Of a DNA stretch of 45,226 nt, positions 1 to 45,149 are shown piece after piece. This DNA comes from a virus. Under the pieces are notes generated by a model. The model worked only from the letters and a program-made list of their open reading frames with translations, had not been told where the DNA came from and did no database searches. The translations under genes were made by a program, and so were the position numbers. Location of the stretch: IMG/VR virus record IMGVR_UViG_3300045988_098743, positions 1-45,226 of that record; one strand, 5' to 3'. Every line of letters begins with the position of its first letter. Position 1 is the first letter of the stretch.

Positions 1-77
1 TTACCTCTTCTTTTATTTTTATTTCAGTTTCTTTTTTAGTTTTATATTTTTTAAATAAGTTTATCATTTTTTTATTT
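1..77. repeat. 77-bp terminal direct repeat (identical to 45150-45226); circular-contig k-mer overlap
   Basis: Exact identity of the first and last 77 nt of the window. The repeat length is bounded by the window edges. Confidence 0.9.
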
Positions 78-964
78 AGTATTTTTTCATTTTTTATTAA
101 AACACCTAATTTTATTGGTTTTAGTTTGTGTCTGAAATACATTGTATCCGTTATATCTTGTTTGCCTGCTCTATTGGAGCGGCTACTCATACCTGCGCTA
201 TATACATCCCCATAAAGTTTTCTCATATGTTCGCCTCGTTTAACTCCAGCCTTTAAATATTCAGCCCTGCACCCTGTTAAATCTTTATTTACTTGCTGAG
301 CCGTTTTACCATACATTAGTATTCCATTTTGTAACACAGGTATATTCATTTGATTTAATTTTAACCTAAATTCTATGTCATCTTCAAAATCTCCATGATA
401 ATTGTCTGGAATAACATTTAATTTTAATGCAAATAAACTATAACAATATCTTTCAGATAAAAATATATCAGCAGGTATAGCAGCCCCACTCATATTGCAT
501 CCTGCAATTCCTGCATTACTTTGTTTCAACATTTCTACTAGAATATCTATAAAATCATTTATCATGTCACTTCCATCACCACTTTGTGATGTTGCTCTAT
601 AAGTTCTTTTATATTGTAAATTATCAGTAATATAATCTTTCACAATATAAGCAATTTGTAACATAGTAATATTATCATCCAATTGTATTAAATATTCATA
701 TCCGTGTTCTTTTGCATATTTTATAGCATAGCTTCTATTCATTGGCGCATACCAAGCATTATCGGAGTTCTTTATATTTTTTTGATACCATTCCATATAA
801 TCTTTAGGAACATTTATTATATCCCAATTAGTATCATAGCCCTCAGAATTATTAGAAATAATAACTTTATCATATTTTATGTTCATTTTTTCAGTAGGTC
901 TTGCTGTTTTATCACCTGGGCGTTTGCCAGATATTTCTACAACTAAAATCTTATTATTCTTCAT
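1..964 (-). CDS. putative nucleotide-sugar glycosyltransferase (GT-A-like). Partial at the window edge. In the circular map it continues to a TGA at 45147..45145, giving 322 aa
   Basis: Manually translated minus-strand frame from ATG 964..962, with a GGA Shine-Dalgarno 6 nt upstream, is open to position 1. The protein begins MKNNKILVVEISGKRPG and ends with an LQLDDNIT DxD-like motif. After wrapping across the 77-bp repeat, its stop overlaps the glf start (TGATG). Confidence 0.6.
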   Translation of the reverse strand, partial: MKNNKILVVEISGKRPGDKTARPTEKMNIKYDKVIISNNSEGYDTNWDIINVPKDYMEWYQKNIKNSDNAWYAPMNRSYAIKYAKEHGYEYLIQLDDNITMLQIAYIVKDYITDNLQYKRTYRATSQSGDGSDMINDFIDILVEMLKQSNAGIAGCNMSGAAIPADIFLSERYCYSLFALKLNVIPDNYHGDFEDDIEFRLKLNQMNIPVLQNGILMYGKTAQQVNKDLTGCRAEYLKAGVKRGEHMRKLYGDVYSAGMSSRSNRAGKQDITDTMYFRHKLKPIKLGVLIKNEKILNKKMINLFKKYKTKKETEIKIKEEV

Positions 965-1445
965 TTATTAATTCCTTTATTTTTTCTGCTAATTCCTTGT
1001 TCTGAGTTTTAATTTGAATTGTATAAACAACTCCTTCTTCATTTTCTATTAATGGAGTGTTATTCTTTTCATCTAATTCTATTAAATCTTCGGTTAATTT
1101 TATATCATTAAAGATGTCGCTTTCATCAAATCCAGTAAATATTTCAAAATTAAGTTCTTCTAATTCTTCTAAAAGTTTTTTATTATCCCATATAGAATAA
1201 TCACTAACTTTATTATCCGCTAATCTAAATGCTTTTATTTGTTTGTCTGTTAAATCATCTGCTATTATGCAAGGTACCTCTTTTAATCCTAATTGCTTGC
1301 TGGCCAAATATCTTGTATGACCAGTTACTATTATATTATTTTTATCAATTACTAAAGGTACTTTAAATCCGAAATTTTTTATACTTTCAGCAACTTTTTC
1401 TATAGCTTTGCTATTATCTCTTGGATTGTTTTCATATGGTTTTAA
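954..1445 (-). CDS. ParB-like nuclease domain protein; the 5' end has no canonical in-frame start
   Basis: The frame encodes LKPYENNPRDNSKAIEKV...IVTGHTRYLASKQLG, matching the KPYENNPR and GHxR ParB N-terminal domain motifs. The track ORF 954..1307 starts at TTG. Upstream, the open frame is bounded by TAA at 1446-1448 with no ATG or GTG. Confidence 0.55.
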   Translation of the reverse strand, partial: LKPYENNPRDNSKAIEKVAESIKNFGFKVPLVIDKNNIIVTGHTRYLASKQLGLKEVPCIIADDLTDKQIKAFRLADNKVSDYSIWDNKKLLEELEELNFEIFTGFDESDIFNDIKLTEDLIELDEKNNTPLIENEEGVVYTIQIKTQNKELAEKIKELINEE

Positions 1446-1974: not shown

Positions 1975-2304
1975 TTAAATCTCCAAAATTTCTAATTCAG
2001 GGTATTTATATTCAAATAATTTTTTCTTTATTTTATAAACTTCTGTACGCATACCTTTAGTATCTTCAACTATCCACTTTTTCTTTTCATTATCATAATA
2101 ATAAAAATCTGCTCTGTATGTGATACTTCTATATGTTTTTCCATTTTTCTTAAAACTTTCTTGTAATATAAAAGGTTTTTGTAATTCTAAATTGTCTATA
2201 ACTTTTGCTCTTTTTAATAACATTAATTCTTTATATCTTCGTGCTTCTTTTTTTGAGTCAAATTTTATACCGTTAACCATAACCTTAACATTATGGTATT
2301 TCAT
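1975..2304 (-). CDS. DUF1064-family phage protein
   Basis: 109 aa, NGIKFDSKKEARRYKEL motif typical of DUF1064. Confidence 0.5.
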   Translation of the reverse strand: MKYHNVKVMVNGIKFDSKKEARRYKELMLLKRAKVIDNLELQKPFILQESFKKNGKTYRSITYRADFYYYDNEKKKWIVEDTKGMRTEVYKIKKKLFEYKYPELEILEI

Positions 2305-4464
2305 TTATTCTCCTTTTTCTTTATAAAACATTTTTCTTAATGTAATTATATCTTTTTGTAATGTTTCTTCATCTTGTTGCTTTAACCAAGCATAAAAATA
2401 GTTAGATGTTGCATTATATAACCTTGAAAACTTAACCTCTCTTTTGTGTAAAACTTTATCTTTTACACTTCTCATTAACTTCCAAAAATTATAATATGGA
2501 AATTTTAACTTGGTCATAAAGTTATTGTTTTCAATAACAACACCCTCTATGTCATCCTTACTTAAATCTTCTTCATCTGTGTTTTCTAAATACCATCTAT
2601 GAAAATCTCTTACATTATCAAATTCTTTATAAATGGTTTTGCATTCACAATTAACCAATTCGGCTAGTCTTTGCACTTCTTTATAAGGTGCTTTTTTAAA
2701 TTCAAAATCATTATATATAATGTCTAATAAAACAATTTTAGATTTATCATATTCAATTATATGTGGATCATTTTCTATATCTATTACTTCAAAAGTTAAT
2801 GATACATTGTTTTTTTGTAAATAATCTTCTAATTTTTCTTTATCAATGTTACTTTCTTCATAAATCTTTTTAAAATATTCCGCATATGTTCCTACGTTTG
2901 TAGATTTACTTGCCATGAAGAGTTTTCCATTTACCCAAGACATTATACCTAAAAAACCATTTTCTTTCTTATAACACGTTATTTTACCTTTAAACGTGGC
3001 TATTAAATGTTCTAATTCTGTTTCTCTTTTTTCATTAACATTGAAAAACTTTTCATATCCTCTAGCTACTACTTTACCACTATTTGTGTCTAAAAATAAT
3101 CCCCTTGCTTTGCAAGTTAAATCATTCCAATTTTTGTTATAAAATGCTTTATGTGTGAAATTGAAAGAACTTATATTATCATCTAATTCTGTTTCTCTAA
3201 TGTCACTAGATAATCTTAATTGTTCTATAATAGGTATTTCTTTTAATATTTTTTTAGGTTGTTCTTCTTCATTTATTTTTTTGCCAAACACATCATTTTT
3301 TATTTTTATTATTTTTGGTTTTTGACCTTTTTCAAGTTGTAAAACTTTTAAATTACCACCAAATTCTATTTTTCCCTCAAGATTATATGACTTATTATCT
3401 ACATCATCTATTTCAAACGTATTTCTATGTCCGTGAATTTGAATAACATCTTTATAATTTTTAGCCCATACATCATCAATGTCTACATTATAATCACCAA
3501 CACCATTTATTAATTGTTCGGTTGCCACATTCTGTAAATCACTAGGCATAAAACTTAACCCACCATGAGAAACTAAATACTTATTATCATCATATTCAAA
3601 ATAAGCCAATTGTCCTAACTTTCTATAAAATGTTCTTAATTCTTTCTTTTGTAAACTTTCTAACTCAAATATTGTATGTTTTAAAAACTGGTTAGATTTT
3701 ATTCTTTCTAATTCATCTAGTGCATAATAATTCATCCACTTTTCGTGATTGCCCTCTAAAAACAAAACATTTTTATTTTGATATAAAGTTAATAAAAATT
3801 CCATTGTTTCTTTGTTTTGAACGCCACGGTCTATATAATCTCCACAAAAAATGTACATTTCATCTTGCGAATATGGATTATCTTCAAAATATTTTTTTAA
3901 TGGTTCATAGCATCCGTGTATATCCCCAAAAATATGTATTTTCTTATAAGCATTAAGGTCAAATAATTTTACTTCAATTTCTTCTGGAAATGTTTCTTTA
4001 TTTAATTTAACCCAACCACTTGTTTTCCCTTGTGTTCTTAATCTTGAATACATTTTATCAATTACACTTTCAGGAACTCTTTTATAATCTTCTCTTAAAG
4101 AATTTCTTTTTTTACATTCTTCTATCGAAACATCACTAAAATCTAAATAATATCTTCTATATCTATAACGTTCACATAATTTATTATACCTACTAAAATC
4201 ACTTGAACGACTATGCGTTGCATCTACAACAACTAATTCTCCACGTGCCATTCTTTTTTCTAATAATTCAAATAATAATGCCCATACATAACTATCATTT
4301 TTTTGGCTTATAACTCTATGTAATTTATCAGGAACTATTATAGGGCTTTCAAATAATAATCTTATGTTATCTGCACTTAACGTATAATTTTCTAAATTAT
4401 GTTCTTTAATATAAGTTGATTTTCCACTAGCAGGGCTTCCTCTTAAAATTATTAAATTTCTCAT
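2305..4464 (-). CDS. pnkp: polynucleotide kinase-phosphatase with C-terminal ligase-like adenylyltransferase domain (bacterial Pnkp-type RNA repair enzyme)
   Basis: - N-terminal P-loop: ILRGSPASGKST.
- Central calcineurin-like phosphoesterase motifs: GDIHG, GDYIDRG, GNHE.
- C-terminal nucleotidyltransferase motifs: KENG (motif I), EGVVI (motif IV), KLKFPYY (motif V). Confidence 0.8.
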   Translation of the reverse strand: MRNLIILRGSPASGKSTYIKEHNLENYTLSADNIRLLFESPIIVPDKLHRVISQKNDSYVWALLFELLEKRMARGELVVVDATHSRSSDFSRYNKLCERYRYRRYYLDFSDVSIEECKKRNSLREDYKRVPESVIDKMYSRLRTQGKTSGWVKLNKETFPEEIEVKLFDLNAYKKIHIFGDIHGCYEPLKKYFEDNPYSQDEMYIFCGDYIDRGVQNKETMEFLLTLYQNKNVLFLEGNHEKWMNYYALDELERIKSNQFLKHTIFELESLQKKELRTFYRKLGQLAYFEYDDNKYLVSHGGLSFMPSDLQNVATEQLINGVGDYNVDIDDVWAKNYKDVIQIHGHRNTFEIDDVDNKSYNLEGKIEFGGNLKVLQLEKGQKPKIIKIKNDVFGKKINEEEQPKKILKEIPIIEQLRLSSDIRETELDDNISSFNFTHKAFYNKNWNDLTCKARGLFLDTNSGKVVARGYEKFFNVNEKRETELEHLIATFKGKITCYKKENGFLGIMSWVNGKLFMASKSTNVGTYAEYFKKIYEESNIDKEKLEDYLQKNNVSLTFEVIDIENDPHIIEYDKSKIVLLDIIYNDFEFKKAPYKEVQRLAELVNCECKTIYKEFDNVRDFHRWYLENTDEEDLSKDDIEGVVIENNNFMTKLKFPYYNFWKLMRSVKDKVLHKREVKFSRLYNATSNYFYAWLKQQDEETLQKDIITLRKMFYKEKGE

Positions 4465-4703
4465 TTTAACTTTTTAGCCTCACTTTCTTTTCTCATCTTT
4501 TTTCGTAAGCGTGTTTTTAATGTTTTATTCTCTTCAAATAAGAACTCATTATTTTTCTCTGCTTCTTCTTTTTCTTTTGTTAATGTTTTTACTGTTTTTT
4601 CCAATTTCCTAATTTCCCTTTTATATTTTATTAATTGTAAATTGAAAGTTTCCATTATTTTTTCTTTTAAATATAACTTTTTGTTTTTTGTTGTTCTTTT
4701 CAT
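4461..4703 (-). CDS. hypothetical coiled-coil protein (80 aa)
   Basis: ORF track; AGGAGG Shine-Dalgarno; K/E-rich heptad-like sequence. Confidence 0.45.
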   Translation of the reverse strand: MKRTTKNKKLYLKEKIMETFNLQLIKYKREIRKLEKTVKTLTKEKEEAEKNNEFLFEENKTLKTRLRKKMRKESEAKKLK

Positions 4704-7056: not shown

Positions 7057-7497
7057 CTAAAATGCGACTTCGTTTTCGTCAATTTCTATTGTGCTACCAA
7101 ATTCTGCAAAGACGTCGTCACTTATTCCTTTCTTTTCCTCTTTTGTTTCTTTTATTACTTCTGTTTGCTTTTGTTCATTCTTTTTAGCAAAGTCAAATAT
7201 TTCTATATAATCTACCATTATATATGATGTTGGAATTTTGCTTCCATCTTTTTCATATGATCCTGTATATAGTTTTCCTTTTACTAAAACCCTTGAACCT
7301 TTTTCAGCATATTTTTCTAAATATTTTGCTTGTGGTCCAAAAACATTTATTTTTATAAAATCCACTGGATATTCTCCATCAGAATTTTTATAATCACGTT
7401 GCACTGCTATTGCATTCATTACACATTCTTTGCTATTTATTGTGTATTTTAATTCAATTGGCTTAGTTAATCTTCCACTAATTGCTATTGTATTCAT
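7057..7497 (-). CDS. ssb: single-stranded DNA-binding protein
   Basis: ISGRLTKPIELKYT OB-fold signature, ends in acidic tail DENEVAF. Confidence 0.8.
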   Translation of the reverse strand: MNTIAISGRLTKPIELKYTINSKECVMNAIAVQRDYKNSDGEYPVDFIKINVFGPQAKYLEKYAEKGSRVLVKGKLYTGSYEKDGSKIPTSYIMVDYIEIFDFAKKNEQKQTEVIKETKEEKKGISDDVFAEFGSTIEIDENEVAF

Positions 7498-7703: not shown

Positions 7704-8513
7704 TTATTCTCCTACTTTTTCCATTAATTTTTTTATGCAAATATCTAATTCTTTATTTGTCATATCACTTAAACTATTTATTCCTTTTCTTTTCTTTTGA
7801 AAAGCCTCTATTATTTTTTCAAAATCAGAATTTGTTTCTTTCACAAGCTCATTTATTCTTGCTATTTTTTCTAAATTCTCATTTTGTTCTTCTTCTGTTA
7901 ATGCTGGGGATAATAATTCAATTCCTGCTTTTATATTTTCATCAGTAGTTTTTTCTCTTAACCACTCTATATATTTTTTATCTGTTTCTAAAATTTCTTT
8001 TAGTGTTTTCCCTTTATGTTTTCCAAAACCTACTATAACTTTTTCAGCATCTTCCTTTGTTGTAACAGCTGGCAAATCTTCACCTTGATAAAGTTTTAAT
8101 CCTAAACCAAACATTGCAATATTTTTTGTTAAACATCTCATTAATGTTTTATTAATATCAAACATAGTTGCTGGTTTTACTACCTTTTCTTCTATTATAA
8201 TTTTTCCATCTTTATTTTTTCTTTTTACTTTGTAAGTATATTCATATGCTAACATTGTTTTATTTGCACTATCCATAACTGGCAAAAACATATCATGTGT
8301 TATTCCATTTATTGTCATAGTTGTAAATACCATATATCCAGTATGTTCGTCATACACATATGGCAAATTATTTTCAAATCTTAAAATGTCATAATGCGCT
8401 CTTTCATCTATCTTTTTGACTTCCGCCCAAGCATATGCCCAAGATAAATAATTTAATCCATTTTTTTGTTCTATTTTATCACTTACATCTATTTCATAAA
8501 ATTCTTTAAACAT
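7704..8513 (-). CDS. putative Rad52-like single-strand annealing protein (DUF1071-like) with C-terminal DUF3820-like segment
   Basis: - GLNYLSWAYAW motif.
- C-terminal FGKHKGKTLKEI...YIEWL motif.
- Flanked by two SSB genes, as in a typical recombination module. Confidence 0.45.
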   Translation of the reverse strand: MFKEFYEIDVSDKIEQKNGLNYLSWAYAWAEVKKIDERAHYDILRFENNLPYVYDEHTGYMVFTTMTINGITHDMFLPVMDSANKTMLAYEYTYKVKRKNKDGKIIIEEKVVKPATMFDINKTLMRCLTKNIAMFGLGLKLYQGEDLPAVTTKEDAEKVIVGFGKHKGKTLKEILETDKKYIEWLREKTTDENIKAGIELLSPALTEEEQNENLEKIARINELVKETNSDFEKIIEAFQKKRKGINSLSDMTNKELDICIKKLMEKVGE

Positions 8514-8856: not shown

Positions 8857-9192
8857 CTATTTTATGCTTTTGTCTTTACTTTTACCACTTGATAAGAATG
8901 TTACTTTTTCTGCTACTACTTCTAATTTTTGTTTGTTTGTTTCCCCAATTATTATCATTTGAAGTCTTCCCTTTATTCCCACCATATCACCTTTATGACA
9001 ATACTCTGCGGTGTTCTCGGCAACACCACTCCATAATTTGACTGGTATAAAATCAGTTTCATAAATTCCATCAACATTTTTCCAACTTCTTGGTACTGCT
9101 AAAATTAAATCACTTACTCTTTTTCCACTTTCTAAACTTTTTATTTCAGGGTCTTGAACTAAACGACCGACTAATACTATTTGATTTAACAT
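8857..9192 (-). CDS. SSB-like OB-fold protein (second paralog, no acidic tail)
   Basis: IVLVGRLVQDPEIKSLESGKRV...DFIPVKLWSG...KGDMVGIKGRL pattern. Confidence 0.6.
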   Translation of the reverse strand: MLNQIVLVGRLVQDPEIKSLESGKRVSDLILAVPRSWKNVDGIYETDFIPVKLWSGVAENTAEYCHKGDMVGIKGRLQMIIIGETNKQKLEVVAEKVTFLSSGKSKDKSIK

Positions 9193-18879: not shown

Positions 18880-18955
18880 TGGAGGGGCTAGTTGGATTTG
18901 AACCAACGTTCAAAGTTTTGCAGACTTTTGCCTTAACCAACTTGGCTATAGCCCC
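18880..18955 (-). tRNA. tRNA-Cys (anticodon GCA), encoded CCA
   Basis: Cloverleaf folded by hand: 7-bp acceptor stem GGGGCUA/UAGCCCC, T-loop UUCAAAU with a 5-bp stem, 5-bp anticodon stem AAAGU/ACUUU with loop CUGCAAA. Confidence 0.85.
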
Positions 18956-36182: not shown

Positions 36183-36248
36183 TGTATTTCCTCCTTTACC
36201 CCAGCCTGTTGTTTTGCCCCCAAGCCATTGTATTTTTTAAACAAAAAA

Positions 36249-36271
36249 GAACCAAACATATCGTTTGGTCC
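36249..36271 (-). promoter_or_regulatory. hairpin plus U-tract in the leader between the late promoter and the scaffold gene (possible attenuator)
   Basis: ACCAAAC-GAUAU-GUUUGGU hairpin then UUCUUUUUUGUUU on the minus strand. Confidence 0.35.
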
Positions 36272-36303
36272 TCTGGGAACTCTGGTATTTCTTACCTAAA
36301 TAC

Positions 36304-36331
36304 ATTATAGCATATCTTTTCTTTTTGTCAA
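36304..36331 (-). promoter_or_regulatory. late structural-operon promoter TTGACA-N16-TGcTATAAT
   Basis: -35 TTGACA at 36331..36326, -10 TATAAT at 36309..36304. Confidence 0.6.
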
Positions 36332-36334
36332 TAA

Positions 36335-36360
36335 ACAAAAAACACCTAATTATAGGTGTT
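36335..36360 (-). terminator. strong intrinsic terminator ending the ORF-free transcription unit
   Basis: AACACCUA-UAAU-UAGGUGUU hairpin followed by UUUUGUUUA. Confidence 0.7.
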
Positions 36361-37444
36361 ATCTGTAATATGTAGAGATACATTTAAGCTACTAAACCGT
36401 ATCTCTTTTTTAATATTATGTGATAATGACGTGCATGTTTGAAGTTTTTCCTTTACTTATATTATTTACCTTTATGGTATACCACATCATTATCGCCTTG
36501 TAAGGAGTAAAGCACTAGTATCTTTAATAGATACTGTCTAATGATATATCTCCCTTTAATCAAGAATAAGATACACGTATCTAACATATATGCTCTTTGC
36601 AAAGATTTGGAGTTGGTGATTAAAGTCTTTTTACCTTAACTTGCGAACCATTTTCTCAACATATATGTATATCACTAGACACTATCTACTAAGATAGTGA
36701 ATTCCCGTACCAATAGGGAATTAAACAAACTCTTTAAAATATTTGAAGAACTAATTTAATAAATCAGTTCCAGTGCCTTATAGACACCATAGAATAGATA
36801 TAGACTACCGTTCTGGAGGTAATTACTCTCCGATTTACGTTTTCGTAGTCGCCCTAACGCTCGCTTTTATATCTACTCTATGCTACCTAAAAGAGATAGC
36901 ATTCCCTTTATGGGAATAAATTAACACATAATCACATATGATTGGTACTTTATAAGTACCTTAGAACAGATATATTGGATTTCTGAGCTTCAAATCTCCA
37001 CGGAACTTAGTCGACTTATAACCTTTCCCTCCTAAAGTTTTTATATATCCATTCTAAGCTACCTACAAGGTAGCCCACTACTTTATATTATTCACTTAAC
37101 ACCAGTGAAAGAATTAAGTTTTCATATATTTCATGTAGACGACTTAGTTCACTGTCTAGGGTATTAGTCGTTTTCCCTACCTTTAAACTAAGGCTTCATT
37201 ACTATTACTAGTGGCACTAGTGACTTCACGATGCCCATGCAAACACAGGATTTTATGTGTTTTCCTAGAGTAATATGCGTGTTTAATCAAATGTCTTATA
37301 AACACCTAGTAGTAAAGGATGGAATGTTATATATATAACGGTAGTACTAAGTAAGAATGTTGTCCTTTACTACGAGTTGCTTATAAGTGCTTTTTTAATC
37401 TAAAACACTCTTCAAAAAATATTTTTGCCTTATTTGTTATCGGC
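36361..37444 (-). ncRNA. candidate large structured noncoding RNA (~1.1 kb, GC-enriched, ORF-free) bracketed by a dedicated promoter and terminator
   Basis: - No ORF of 60 aa or more on either strand across 36183-37486.
- Locally raised GC.
- Many stem-loops, including two TTCCC...GGGAA hairpins, GGTACTT..AAGTACC and GCTACC..GGTAGC.
- Promoter copy 4 at 37451-37479 and the terminator at 36335-36360. Confidence 0.4.
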
Positions 37445-37450
37445 ATTATC

Positions 37451-37488
37451 ATTATATTATATTTTTAGTAAAATGTAAACACTTTTTT
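37451..37488 (-). promoter_or_regulatory. early-family promoter, copy 4 (AAAAAAGTGTTTACA-N17-TATAAT), firing into the ORF-free region
   Basis: -35 TTTACA at 37479..37474, -10 TATAAT at 37456..37451. Confidence 0.5.
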
Positions 37489-37885
37489 AAAATTTATTTC
37501 TTTTTGTATATTCTGGTTTTATTATTAGTTTTTTCTTTTTATTTCTTTCTCCACAATGTTCTCTTTCAAAATATGTTAAACAATCATCTATAAACCTTAT
37601 ACTTTGTATATCTAAATATCCTTGCCTATTTTCTTCTATCATTTTCATTGTTATGGCTTGAAATAACTCATTGTCCTTTGCTTCTATTAAATGCAAATAA
37701 GGATGAGAAGATTTGCCACATAAAATTGCTCCATTTTCACGTGTTATCTTCCCACCCTCACGGTTTGGTATTATTAAATGATGATATGTATATATGTCGT
37801 CTTTTTGCAGACTATACCCCATAAAATCATATCCTAATTCTTTTATCTTAAACTCTCTTAACATTAGAATAGTCGTTTGTTTCAA
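37487..37885 (-). CDS. HNH homing endonuclease
   Basis: YHHLIIPNREGG...NGAILCGKSSHPYLH HNH motif. Confidence 0.65.
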   Translation of the reverse strand: MKQTTILMLREFKIKELGYDFMGYSLQKDDIYTYHHLIIPNREGGKITRENGAILCGKSSHPYLHLIEAKDNELFQAITMKMIEENRQGYLDIQSIRFIDDCLTYFEREHCGERNKKKKLIIKPEYTKRNKF

Positions 37886-38089: not shown

Positions 38090-38782
38090 CTAGTTTCCTG
38101 CATTTTCCACCTCGACATACTCAAAATGATAACCTTTGCAACTTTTAAATCCATATTCTTTTTTTAATACTCTCATAATTGTTCTTCTATCAACTCCTAA
38201 TTTTTCCGACACATCTCTCGTTCCTCTATATATCTTATTATTTTCTAAGCATTTAATTAATTTTATTTTTCTTGTAACCTTTATTTTATTTCTAAAACTA
38301 TCATCAAATGTTTTTCCTTTATTCGGTGATATTCTTCCTGTTGCTTTTTTAGACATCATTTCTCTATAACCTGGTTGTTGCCATACTTTTTTAGCACTAT
38401 CACTCATTTTCTTTCTTATTTCTTTTGTATATATTAGTGGTTTCCTATTTGTTTTTTGTTTTTCTATTTGTTCTTTAGTGTGTTTATACCCCTTAGAACT
38501 TTCTCCACCCTTTGATAAATTATAACCATATAATGGATTTGATGTATTATATTTGGCGATTAATTCTATTTCTTTTTGTTTTGCTTCTTTTTCGGTTAAA
38601 TTTTCAAATAAAATAATATGTTTTATATTATTCCAACCATACTTTTTTATCGCACTTTCAAAATGCTTATTATTAGAATATCCGTTTCCACTTCTCCACC
38701 GATTATTTGGATTTATTTTTGACGTTATTCCTATATAATATTTATTATTAGGAGTTTTGTGCATATAAACTATATATTTCAT
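38090..38782 (-). CDS. GIY-YIG homing endonuclease with NUMOD-type DNA-binding repeats
   Basis: KYIVYMHKTPNNKYYIGITS GIY-YIG, NNRWRSG, catalytic E region, C-terminal KGYKHTKEQIEK / SPNKGKTF repeats. Confidence 0.8.
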   Translation of the reverse strand: MKYIVYMHKTPNNKYYIGITSKINPNNRWRSGNGYSNNKHFESAIKKYGWNNIKHIILFENLTEKEAKQKEIELIAKYNTSNPLYGYNLSKGGESSKGYKHTKEQIEKQKTNRKPLIYTKEIRKKMSDSAKKVWQQPGYREMMSKKATGRISPNKGKTFDDSFRNKIKVTRKIKLIKCLENNKIYRGTRDVSEKLGVDRRTIMRVLKKEYGFKSCKGYHFEYVEVENAGN

Positions 38783-43727: not shown

Positions 43728-43829
43728 ATATTCTCCTTTTTATTTGGCAGAGGTTCTAGGTTATGCTCCCAGTTCTTCGGATTTGGAGCCCGATATTTTT
43801 CTAATTAAACTAAACCTCTATAAAGCATC

Positions 43830-44059: not shown

Positions 44060-45145
44060 TTATTCTCCTAATTGTTTTATTAATTTAAATGCCTCTTCTA
44101 TTGTTTTGTCCATATCAAAATATTTATATTGTCCTAATCTTCCAGCAAATATAACTTTATCATTTTTAATTTTAGCATATTTTTGGTATAATTTTTCATT
44201 TTTTTTATCGTTTATAGGATAATAAGCGTTTTCTCCATCATATTTACAAGGATATTCCTTTGTTATTATAGTTTTTTTACTTATACAATTAGCAAAATGT
44301 TTATGTTCTATAATTCTAGTATAAGGTATTCGCTTCTCTGTATAATTTATTACTGCATTGCCTTGAAAATTTTCTACATTTAAAGTTTCTTCTTGAAAAC
44401 GTAAACTACGGTATTCAAGTTTACCATAAATATAGTCATAATAAGCATCTATTTGCCCTGTGTAAATTATCTTTTTACATTTATTATTATAATATTCTTT
44501 ATTTTTTATATAATCTCTATTAAGTTTCACATCTATGCCTTTTAACATGTTTTGAATTATAGTTGTATATCCGTGTTCTGGTATACCTTGGAATTTAGCA
44601 TTAAAATAGTTATTATTATAGGTTAATCTTACTGGAAGTCTTTTTATGATAGATGCTGGTAATTTTTTACACTTTTTGCCCCATTGTTTTTCTGTATATC
44701 CTTTAATTAAAATTTTATAAACATCTTTGCCCACCATAGAGATTGCTTGTTCTTCTAAATTAGTAATTTTTTTTATTTTTCTTTTTTGTTTATTTATTTT
44801 ATCTAAAACTTTTTTTGGAGTATTTGTATTTTTCCATATTTTAGTAAAAGTGTTCATATTAAATGGTAAATTATAAACTTTATTTTTATAAATTGCTATT
44901 GGCTCATTTATAAAACTATTAAATTTATCAAATTTATTTATATAATCCCAAACGTCTTTATTATTAGTATGAAATATATGAGCACCATATTTATGTATAT
45001 AAATATTATGTTTTTTCTCTGTATATATATTTCCACCAATATGATTTCTTTTATCTATAACTAAACACTTTTTCCCTCTATCGGTTAACTCTCTAGCCAC
45101 TATACTTCCATATAATCCTGCTCCTACAATTAAATAATCATACAT
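44060..45145 (-). CDS. glf: UDP-galactopyranose mutase
   Basis: - Near full-length match to Glf: MYDYLIVGAGLYGS FAD-binding motif, HIGGNIYT, HKYGAHIFHT, NLEEQAISMVGKDVY, IKGYTEKQWG, YTRIIEHKHF, YYPINDKKN.
- Probable start at ATG 45145; the track's TTG at 45148 is 1 codon upstream. Confidence 0.9.
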   Translation of the reverse strand: MYDYLIVGAGLYGSIVARELTDRGKKCLVIDKRNHIGGNIYTEKKHNIYIHKYGAHIFHTNNKDVWDYINKFDKFNSFINEPIAIYKNKVYNLPFNMNTFTKIWKNTNTPKKVLDKINKQKRKIKKITNLEEQAISMVGKDVYKILIKGYTEKQWGKKCKKLPASIIKRLPVRLTYNNNYFNAKFQGIPEHGYTTIIQNMLKGIDVKLNRDYIKNKEYYNNKCKKIIYTGQIDAYYDYIYGKLEYRSLRFQEETLNVENFQGNAVINYTEKRIPYTRIIEHKHFANCISKKTIITKEYPCKYDGENAYYPINDKKNEKLYQKYAKIKNDKVIFAGRLGQYKYFDMDKTIEEAFKLIKQLGE

Positions 45146-45149
45146 CAAA

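Follow-up and report, generated by a model that had tools for sequence, protein, structure and literature searches.

What does a bacteriophage do with a single protein that carries a kinase, a phosphoesterase and an RNA ligase? This question is raised by IMG/VR virus record IMGVR_UViG_3300045988_098743, a stretch of 45,226 nucleotides (hereafter the window) in which an open reading frame (ORF) at positions 2305..4464 on the minus strand runs from an ATG start to a stop codon at 2305-2307 and encodes 719 amino acids. To our knowledge, the repair by phages of tRNA damage inflicted by host defences has essentially one worked example, wherein Pnkp and Rnl1 of phage T4 counter the nuclease PrrC. 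We conclude that the protein encoded in the window is a chimera: its healing half is of the bacterial Pnkp type, and its sealing half, which belongs to the Rnl1/Trl1 lineage, is nearest to the fungal Trl1-LIG ('Rnl6') ligases. We consider it probable that this chimera is a self-sufficient phage enzyme that both heals and seals breaks in RNA that leave a 2',3'-cyclic phosphate and a 5'-OH terminus, on one polypeptide.

The ORF had been noted, with no mention of its strand, in a first-pass annotation made from the sequence alone, which proposed a kinase, a metallophosphoesterase and a ligase in that order. The ORF is real, and both Pfam searches and the folded modules of a structural model confirm the proposed order. 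Hidden Markov model searches recover each domain above its curated cutoff: AAA_33 at residues 4-142 (69.8 bits, cutoff 27), Metallophos at residues 175-350 (67.8 bits, cutoff 21.5) and, for the ligase, RNA_lig_T4_1 at residues 452-658 (141.6 bits, E 4.5e-41, cutoff 28.3), where the match spans the whole model (1-227/227). For a 2.16-kb ORF in a genome of 27.8% GC content, scores of this size are far beyond chance. All the motifs quoted by the annotation are likewise present, namely GSPASGKST (residues 9-17), GDIHG (180-184), GDYIDRG (208-214) and GNHE (238-241) in the healing half, and KENG (500-503), EGVVI (640-644) and KLK (652-654) in the ligase.

An AlphaFold2 model of the protein, built from an alignment of 71 sequences, has a mean predicted local distance difference test score (pLDDT) of 91.0 and resolves into three folded modules, with disorder confined to one linker. 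This linker (residues 396-408; 3241..3279, minus strand, as are all features of the gene given below), where pLDDT falls below 50, forms the boundary between the healing and sealing halves. Residue conservation was counted in the same 71 sequences, which are about 40% identical and in which the catalytic residues are invariant or nearly so. The motif I lysine (K500) and the phosphoesterase histidines H240, H300 and H346 are retained in every sequence, and H183 is a histidine in 68 of the 71. The active sites of all three modules are under purifying selection.

Module 1 (residues 1-150; 4015..4464) is assigned as a P-loop 5'-OH polynucleotide kinase of the bacterial Pnkp type by Pfam, Foldseek, profile comparison and conservation. 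Its key residues are K15 (4420-4422), S16, D32 (4369-4371), R35 and R124, and all of these except S16 were counted as invariant in 71 of 71 sequences. The top structural matches found with Foldseek are the kinase domains of Clostridium thermocellum Pnkp (CthPnkp; 4gp6/4jt2/4gp7/4mde), with template modeling (TM) scores of 0.74-0.75 and 26-28% identity, and the family profile matches 4gp7 with an E-value of 2e-13.

Module 2 (residues 170-395; 3280..3957) is a binuclear metallophosphoesterase, predicted to act as a 2',3'-cyclic phosphodiesterase and phosphomonoesterase. Its top structural matches are lambda phosphatase (1g5b, TM 0.66-0.71) and the CthPnkp phosphatase (4j6o, TM 0.65). Nine residues are essential in the CthPnkp phosphatase (D187, H189, D233, R237, N263, H264, H323, H376 and D392; PMC3675462), and a residue-by-residue map onto 4j6o gives each of them a counterpart among the metal and phosphate ligands of the phage protein (D181, H183, D209, R213, N239, H240, H300, H346 and E363), all invariant save for H183. 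The counterpart of D392 is an invariant glutamate, E363, and we considered whether this residue might be the mark of an enzyme that acts only as a diesterase. That idea was rejected because the D392E variant of CthPnkp keeps both its Mn2+-dependent diesterase and its monoesterase activity, with cyclic phosphodiesterase activity at 160% of wild type (PMC2190708). Because H183, R213 and H240, which correspond to residues critical for the Mn2+-dependent monoesterase step, are conserved, and because E363 matches the active D392E enzyme, complete removal of the phosphate is expected.

Some family members carry an insertion of at least ~300 amino acids that falls inside the phosphatase's GNHE region (query residues ~233-257) or immediately follows it, as at locus L050 (8512-9509) and in proteins P0249, P0290, P0322 and P0370, which are 1001-1069 amino acids long. 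Such an arrangement might reflect an intein or the insertion of a homing endonuclease.

The sealing half departs from bacterial Pnkp. Its core (residues 409 onward; 2500..3240) has the adenylyltransferase domain with an Rnl1-like N sub-domain, which contributes R454, K472 and F473, followed by motif I (K500, 2965-2967), motif III (E559), H568 (2761-2763), motif IV (E640-G641) and motif V (K652/K654). The core is followed by a small, all-helical C-terminal domain (residues 656-719; 2308..2499) with key residues W661, K662 (2479-2481), R665 (2470-2472) and an IIxLR motif that includes R710 (2335-2337). A distinctive all-helical domain at this position defines the Trl1-LIG clade (PMC6379707), and Trl1-LIG is the nearest solved structure for the ligase module with its C-terminal domain included. 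The family profile aligns to Trl1-LIG from end to end (E 2.3e-33 and 7e-24). Residues R454, K472, F473, K500, E559, E640/G641 and K652/K654 are invariant, and they align to R99, K120, F121, K148, E218, E300/G301 and K323/K325 of CthLIG; the first four of these were used to check that the chain numbering of 6n0v equals the native numbering. The module is not the Rnl4-type ligase/adenylyltransferase found at the C terminus of bacterial Pnkp, nor does it carry the C-terminal tRNA-specificity domain of the T4 Rnl1 clade.

In fungal LIG, specificity for 2'-phosphate (2'-PO4) ends is enforced by H227, R334 and R337 (PMC11404444, PMC12440814). By profile alignment, this CthLIG triad corresponds to H568 (71 of 71 sequences), K662 (lysine in 70, arginine in one) and R665 (71 of 71).

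The gene belongs to a large and common family that is partly annotated and experimentally uncharacterised. The whole ORF matches PHROG 8238 ('RNA ligase') over its full length (E 1.4e-216; residues 1-717 versus profile positions 1-733 of 737). With tblastn, 113 cultured phage records have a match at 80% coverage or more, and the carriers include SPbeta-like phages (45% identity), Staphylococcus phage Twort and K-like phages (~39%), Fusobacterium phage phiKSUM and an Alicyclobacillus phage. Protein databases hold at least 3,982 relatives at E<=1e-10, and those listed carry the same three Pfam domains. After clustering at 50%, there are 977 representatives at E<=1e-30, and among the best 150 the match covers the whole query in nearly every case. 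At least 493 loci in IMG/VR encode a relative of the ligase module. Of 83 loci that were examined, 80 have the three modules fused; the three others are a contig truncation, an insertion of ~1 kb and a split. Source names for these proteins differ (RNA ligase, AAA family ATPase, metallophosphoesterase, Ser/Thr phosphatase), and the exact protein from the window is already in public collections, where it lies on contigs of ~45.2 kb under the JGI name 'predicted kinase/predicted phosphodiesterase'. The neighbours of the homologs in Twort, SPbetaL8, phiKSUM and a gut prophage include no conserved partner gene.

A few phages have either two coding sequences annotated as 'RNA ligase' in place of the one gene or a ligase module that stands alone. 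Such cases occur in Staphylococcus phages S-CoN_Ph8, Ph15 and Ph16 (hits H6-H8), in P0165 (442 amino acids), at locus L068 and in BFVD entry A0A8S5TYL2 (314 amino acids); the stand-alone ligase module superimposes on our ligase model with TM scores of 0.88-0.89. These arrangements suggest that the healing and sealing halves are able to function, or to decay, separately.

From the folds and active sites we infer the following sequence of reactions. The N-terminal kinase would phosphorylate the 5'-OH of a broken RNA, while the binuclear phosphoesterase would use Mn2+ to open the cyclic phosphate, passing through a 2'-phosphate stage in the manner of CthPnkp, and most likely would then remove the phosphate to leave a 3'-OH/2'-OH end. 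The ATP-dependent ligase would become adenylylated on K500, transfer AMP to the 5'-phosphate and seal the break. The most likely substrates are tRNAs cut by host defences, and the enzyme would thereby reverse the breaks made by defence RNases, following the paradigm of T4 Pnkp and Rnl1 versus PrrC. Repair of tRNA by CthPnkp has been demonstrated in vitro (PMC1920235).

Several points weigh against this proposal. We found no biochemical or genetic study of any family member in the literature searched, although the architecture may already be listed in the 2016 RNA repair survey of Burroughs and Aravind, and it has been stated in general terms that ATP-dependent RNA ligases, kinases and calcineurin-like phosphoesterases are combined in phages (PMC7824862, PMC9503650). 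The counter-defence role, too, is putative. In addition, the gene resides in a DNA replication and recombination module, with genes for SSB, a Sak annealase and a DUF1064 protein, rather than beside other RNA-repair genes. Finally, the apparent conservation of the Trl1 2'-phosphate triad puts the chemical state of the 3' end after sealing in doubt.

This last point leads to a different account of the sealing step, in which the ligase would prefer or require a 3'-OH/2'-PO4 end, take the 2'-phosphate intermediate of the phosphoesterase and make a 2'-PO4, 3'-5' junction. The junction would later be cleared by host Tpt1/KptA, or would persist and block re-cleavage. Such a yeast-type route is conceivable because the predicted triad counterparts H568, K662 and R665 are conserved, because phosphoesterases of the Pnkp type proceed via 2'-PO4, and because the single change H189D makes CthPnkp feed the yeast ligase pathway (PMC1920235); the end-to-end relationship to Trl1-LIG argues in the same direction. 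However, the conserved monoesterase residues and E363 lead us to expect that the phosphate is removed in full, a lysine replaces the first arginine of the triad, and a profile of the C-terminal domain alone gave no significant match. Nor is the triad a sufficient predictor of 2'-PO4 use, since both fungal arginines are missing from plant Trl1 (PMC12440814) and yet AtRNL, a plant tRNA ligase, is reported to have the same need for 2'-PO4 (PMC6379707). Furthermore, the window contains no Tpt1/KptA. A search of 83 loci that recovered its positive controls likewise found none up to 10 kb away from the gene. Among the 98 phage records that encode KptA there is no Staphylococcus phage, and the Bacillus phages named among them (C30-3 and phage G) are not SPbeta-like carriers of the fusion. 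With none near the gene in those loci and no overlap seen between the two sets of phages, we rejected a linkage to Tpt1/KptA. Taking both sides into account, we regard this route as unlikely.

Two other explanations have far less in their favour. The first-pass annotation had interpreted the protein as a phage-borne, trifunctional Pnkp of the Pnkp/Hen1 system that lacks its Hen1 partner. The trifunctional architecture, the module order and the phage setting all stand, and a fold comparison with C. thermocellum Pnkp, which the annotation had proposed, bears out the kinase and phosphatase modules; the sealing module, however, is nearest to Trl1-LIG. The bacterial Pnkp equivalog model TIGR04075 (851 positions) reaches only 89.6 bits against a cutoff of 750, and it aligns residues 4-376 to model positions 10-402, which is the healing half alone. 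We therefore rejected membership of the bacterial Pnkp family. The annotation was correct that Hen1 is absent, as no methyltransferase was found with Pfam and PHROGs among the window ORFs scanned (every sizeable non-structural one, plus a 322-amino-acid gene that wraps around the ends of the window). No methyltransferase is annotated next to the homologs in Twort or SPbetaL8, and the phiKSUM neighbourhood has only DNA methyltransferases annotated. For a protein that joins a Pnkp-type healing half to an Rnl1/Trl1-lineage sealing half, the absence of Hen1 is expected rather than remarkable. Although the domain order and the healing-half matches would suit a true Pnkp/Hen1 family member whose partner was lost or is dispensable, the TIGR04075 score, the ligase type and the lack of a linked Hen1 contradict this reading, and we find it extremely improbable. 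Likewise, the position of the gene in an operon between the SSB and Sak annealase genes and the resolvase-like DUF1064 gene, together with the ability of Pnkp-type kinases to use DNA 5'-OH ends in vitro (a DNA oligonucleotide assay; PMC1920235), might indicate that the enzyme mends DNA breaks of the 3'-phosphate/5'-OH kind while the phage replicates or recombines. We judge a DNA end-processing function to be very improbable, and we favour RNA repair by healing and sealing.

The genomic setting of the repair gene is as follows. The window has essentially all its genes on the minus strand. Immediately upstream, an 80-amino-acid coiled-coil ORF (4461..4703, minus) that matches no family has a stop codon that overlaps the start of the repair gene (ATGA), which suggests from the sequence that the two are translationally coupled; we regard the small ORF as context rather than as a demonstrated partner. 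Immediately downstream, the start of the DUF1064 gene, which resembles a Holliday junction resolvase (1975..2304, minus), abuts the stop codon of the repair gene (TAAATG), and its GGAG ribosome-binding site falls within the 3' end of the repair gene. Because of these two junctions, we place the repair gene in an operon with the SSB and Sak annealase genes. Two separate SSB-family genes (7057-7497 and 8857-9192, minus) flank the gene for the Sak-type single-strand annealing protein (7704-8513).

The window has genes for terminase, portal, capsid and tail proteins, an M23 peptidase and two tRNAs. Contigs of 45,204-45,290 bp from other samples have the same genes with a different start point, and the window therefore represents, in circularly permuted form, an essentially complete phage genome of ~45.2 kb. 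It has no nucleotide-level relatives among cultured phages. The tRNA genes, tRNA-Cys(GCA) at 18880-18955 and tRNA-Trp(CCA) at 43745-43819 (both minus), could provide spare parts against tRNA-targeting defences beside an RNA repair enzyme, or could supplement codon usage.

Three further features of this genome were recorded. A stretch of ~1.3 kb (36183-37486, minus) has no ORF of 50 amino acids or more on either strand and a slightly raised GC content, and it lies between a scaffold gene and two endonuclease genes. When positions 36500-37400 were folded and compared with shuffled sequences, the minus-strand RNA gave z = -7.8 and the plus strand -4.3. With no Rfam match and no cultured-phage homolog, this stretch is a candidate for a large structured non-coding RNA, or for a degenerate intron, in the structural module. 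The adjoining HNH-like ORF (132 amino acids, no family match; 37487-37885, minus) and GIY-YIG endonuclease gene (38090-38782, minus) sit between the scaffold/capsid genes and the head-morphogenesis/portal genes, and they are probably free-standing homing endonucleases. Finally, a three-gene cassette occupies window positions 1-1307 and 44060-45148, which are adjacent on the circular genome (L007 6158-8160). It consists of a gene with a ParB-like N-terminal domain (954-1307), the 322-amino-acid gene that continues past the window's low end, and a gene for UDP-galactopyranose mutase (258.9 bits). The second of these scores 24.9 bits as a TET-associated glycosyltransferase, just below the cutoff of 27.5, and matches the PHROG for beta-glucosyl-HMC glucosyltransferase (E 1.9e-6); being glycosyltransferase-like, it was rejected as a methyltransferase candidate. 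The cassette hints at possible DNA glycosylation, by galactofuranosyl modification of DNA bases.

If the proposed function is correct, the family would be a widespread, single-protein version of the T4 strategy in phages of Bacillota and gut Firmicutes, with carriers that include SPbeta-like phages as well as Twort and K, which are relatives of therapeutic phages. Such an activity would be relevant to the many tRNA-cleaving defence systems described recently. Moreover, the Trl1-LIG fold, which has been described as a fungal/eukaryal clade, has close relatives in bacterial viruses, a finding of relevance to how the tRNA-splicing ligase of eukaryotes arose. A Trl1-type ligase with apparently conserved 2'-phosphate-pocket residues in these viruses should interest specialists, and the inconsistent database names for the family could now be corrected.

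Bacteria widely encode Tpt1/KptA without a known substrate, and a 'yeast-like RNA ligase' has been invoked as the missing explanation (PMC6333775). It is doubtful, but worth stating, that the sealing module is a prokaryotic-virus member of Trl1-LIG (Rnl6) that has kept the 2'-phosphate pocket and makes 2'-PO4 junctions in bacterial RNA. If it does so, it would be that missing ligase; alternatively, the 2'-PO4 would shield the repaired tRNA from being cut again, much as Hen1 methylation does in Pnkp-Hen1. The question of the bacterial Tpt1/KptA substrate thus becomes directly testable with one recombinant protein. As a separate observation, Bacillus phage G (JN638751.1) encodes both a KptA/Tpt1 homolog, gp280 (205029-205562), and a 457-amino-acid ligase, gp265, that resembles our ligase module (Foldseek E 7e-17, TM 0.67 normalised to the query), and this phage is one case in which a related ligase and an RNA 2'-phosphotransferase occur together.

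The combination of modules described here is absent from the characterised systems T4 Pnkp plus Rnl1, Pnkp-Hen1, Pnkp1-Rnl-Hen1 and Trl1. One system for comparison is the tRNA restriction-repair pathway of T4 Pnkp and Rnl1, from which the phage protein differs by its lack of the Rnl1-type C-terminal domain. Fungal Trl1 is arranged as ligase, kinase and cyclic phosphodiesterase (LIG-KIN-CPD), in which the kinase depends on GTP and the cyclic phosphodiesterase is of the 2H type, whereas the phage protein is arranged as kinase, phosphatase and ligase, with a Pnkp-type kinase, a metallophosphoesterase and no 2H domain by Pfam or in the model. Even within the shared ligase, the phage family has lysine for the first triad arginine and a shorter C-terminal domain (~64 versus ~80 amino acids). 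Bacterial Pnkp, in contrast, shares with the phage protein the order of its three modules, a kinase that is the nearest structural match, and a binuclear phosphatase fold in which all nine essential residues are matched. Similarly, the Pnkp1-Rnl-Hen1 complex of Capnocytophaga gingivalis also teams a kinase-phosphatase healing enzyme with a ligase for RNA repair.
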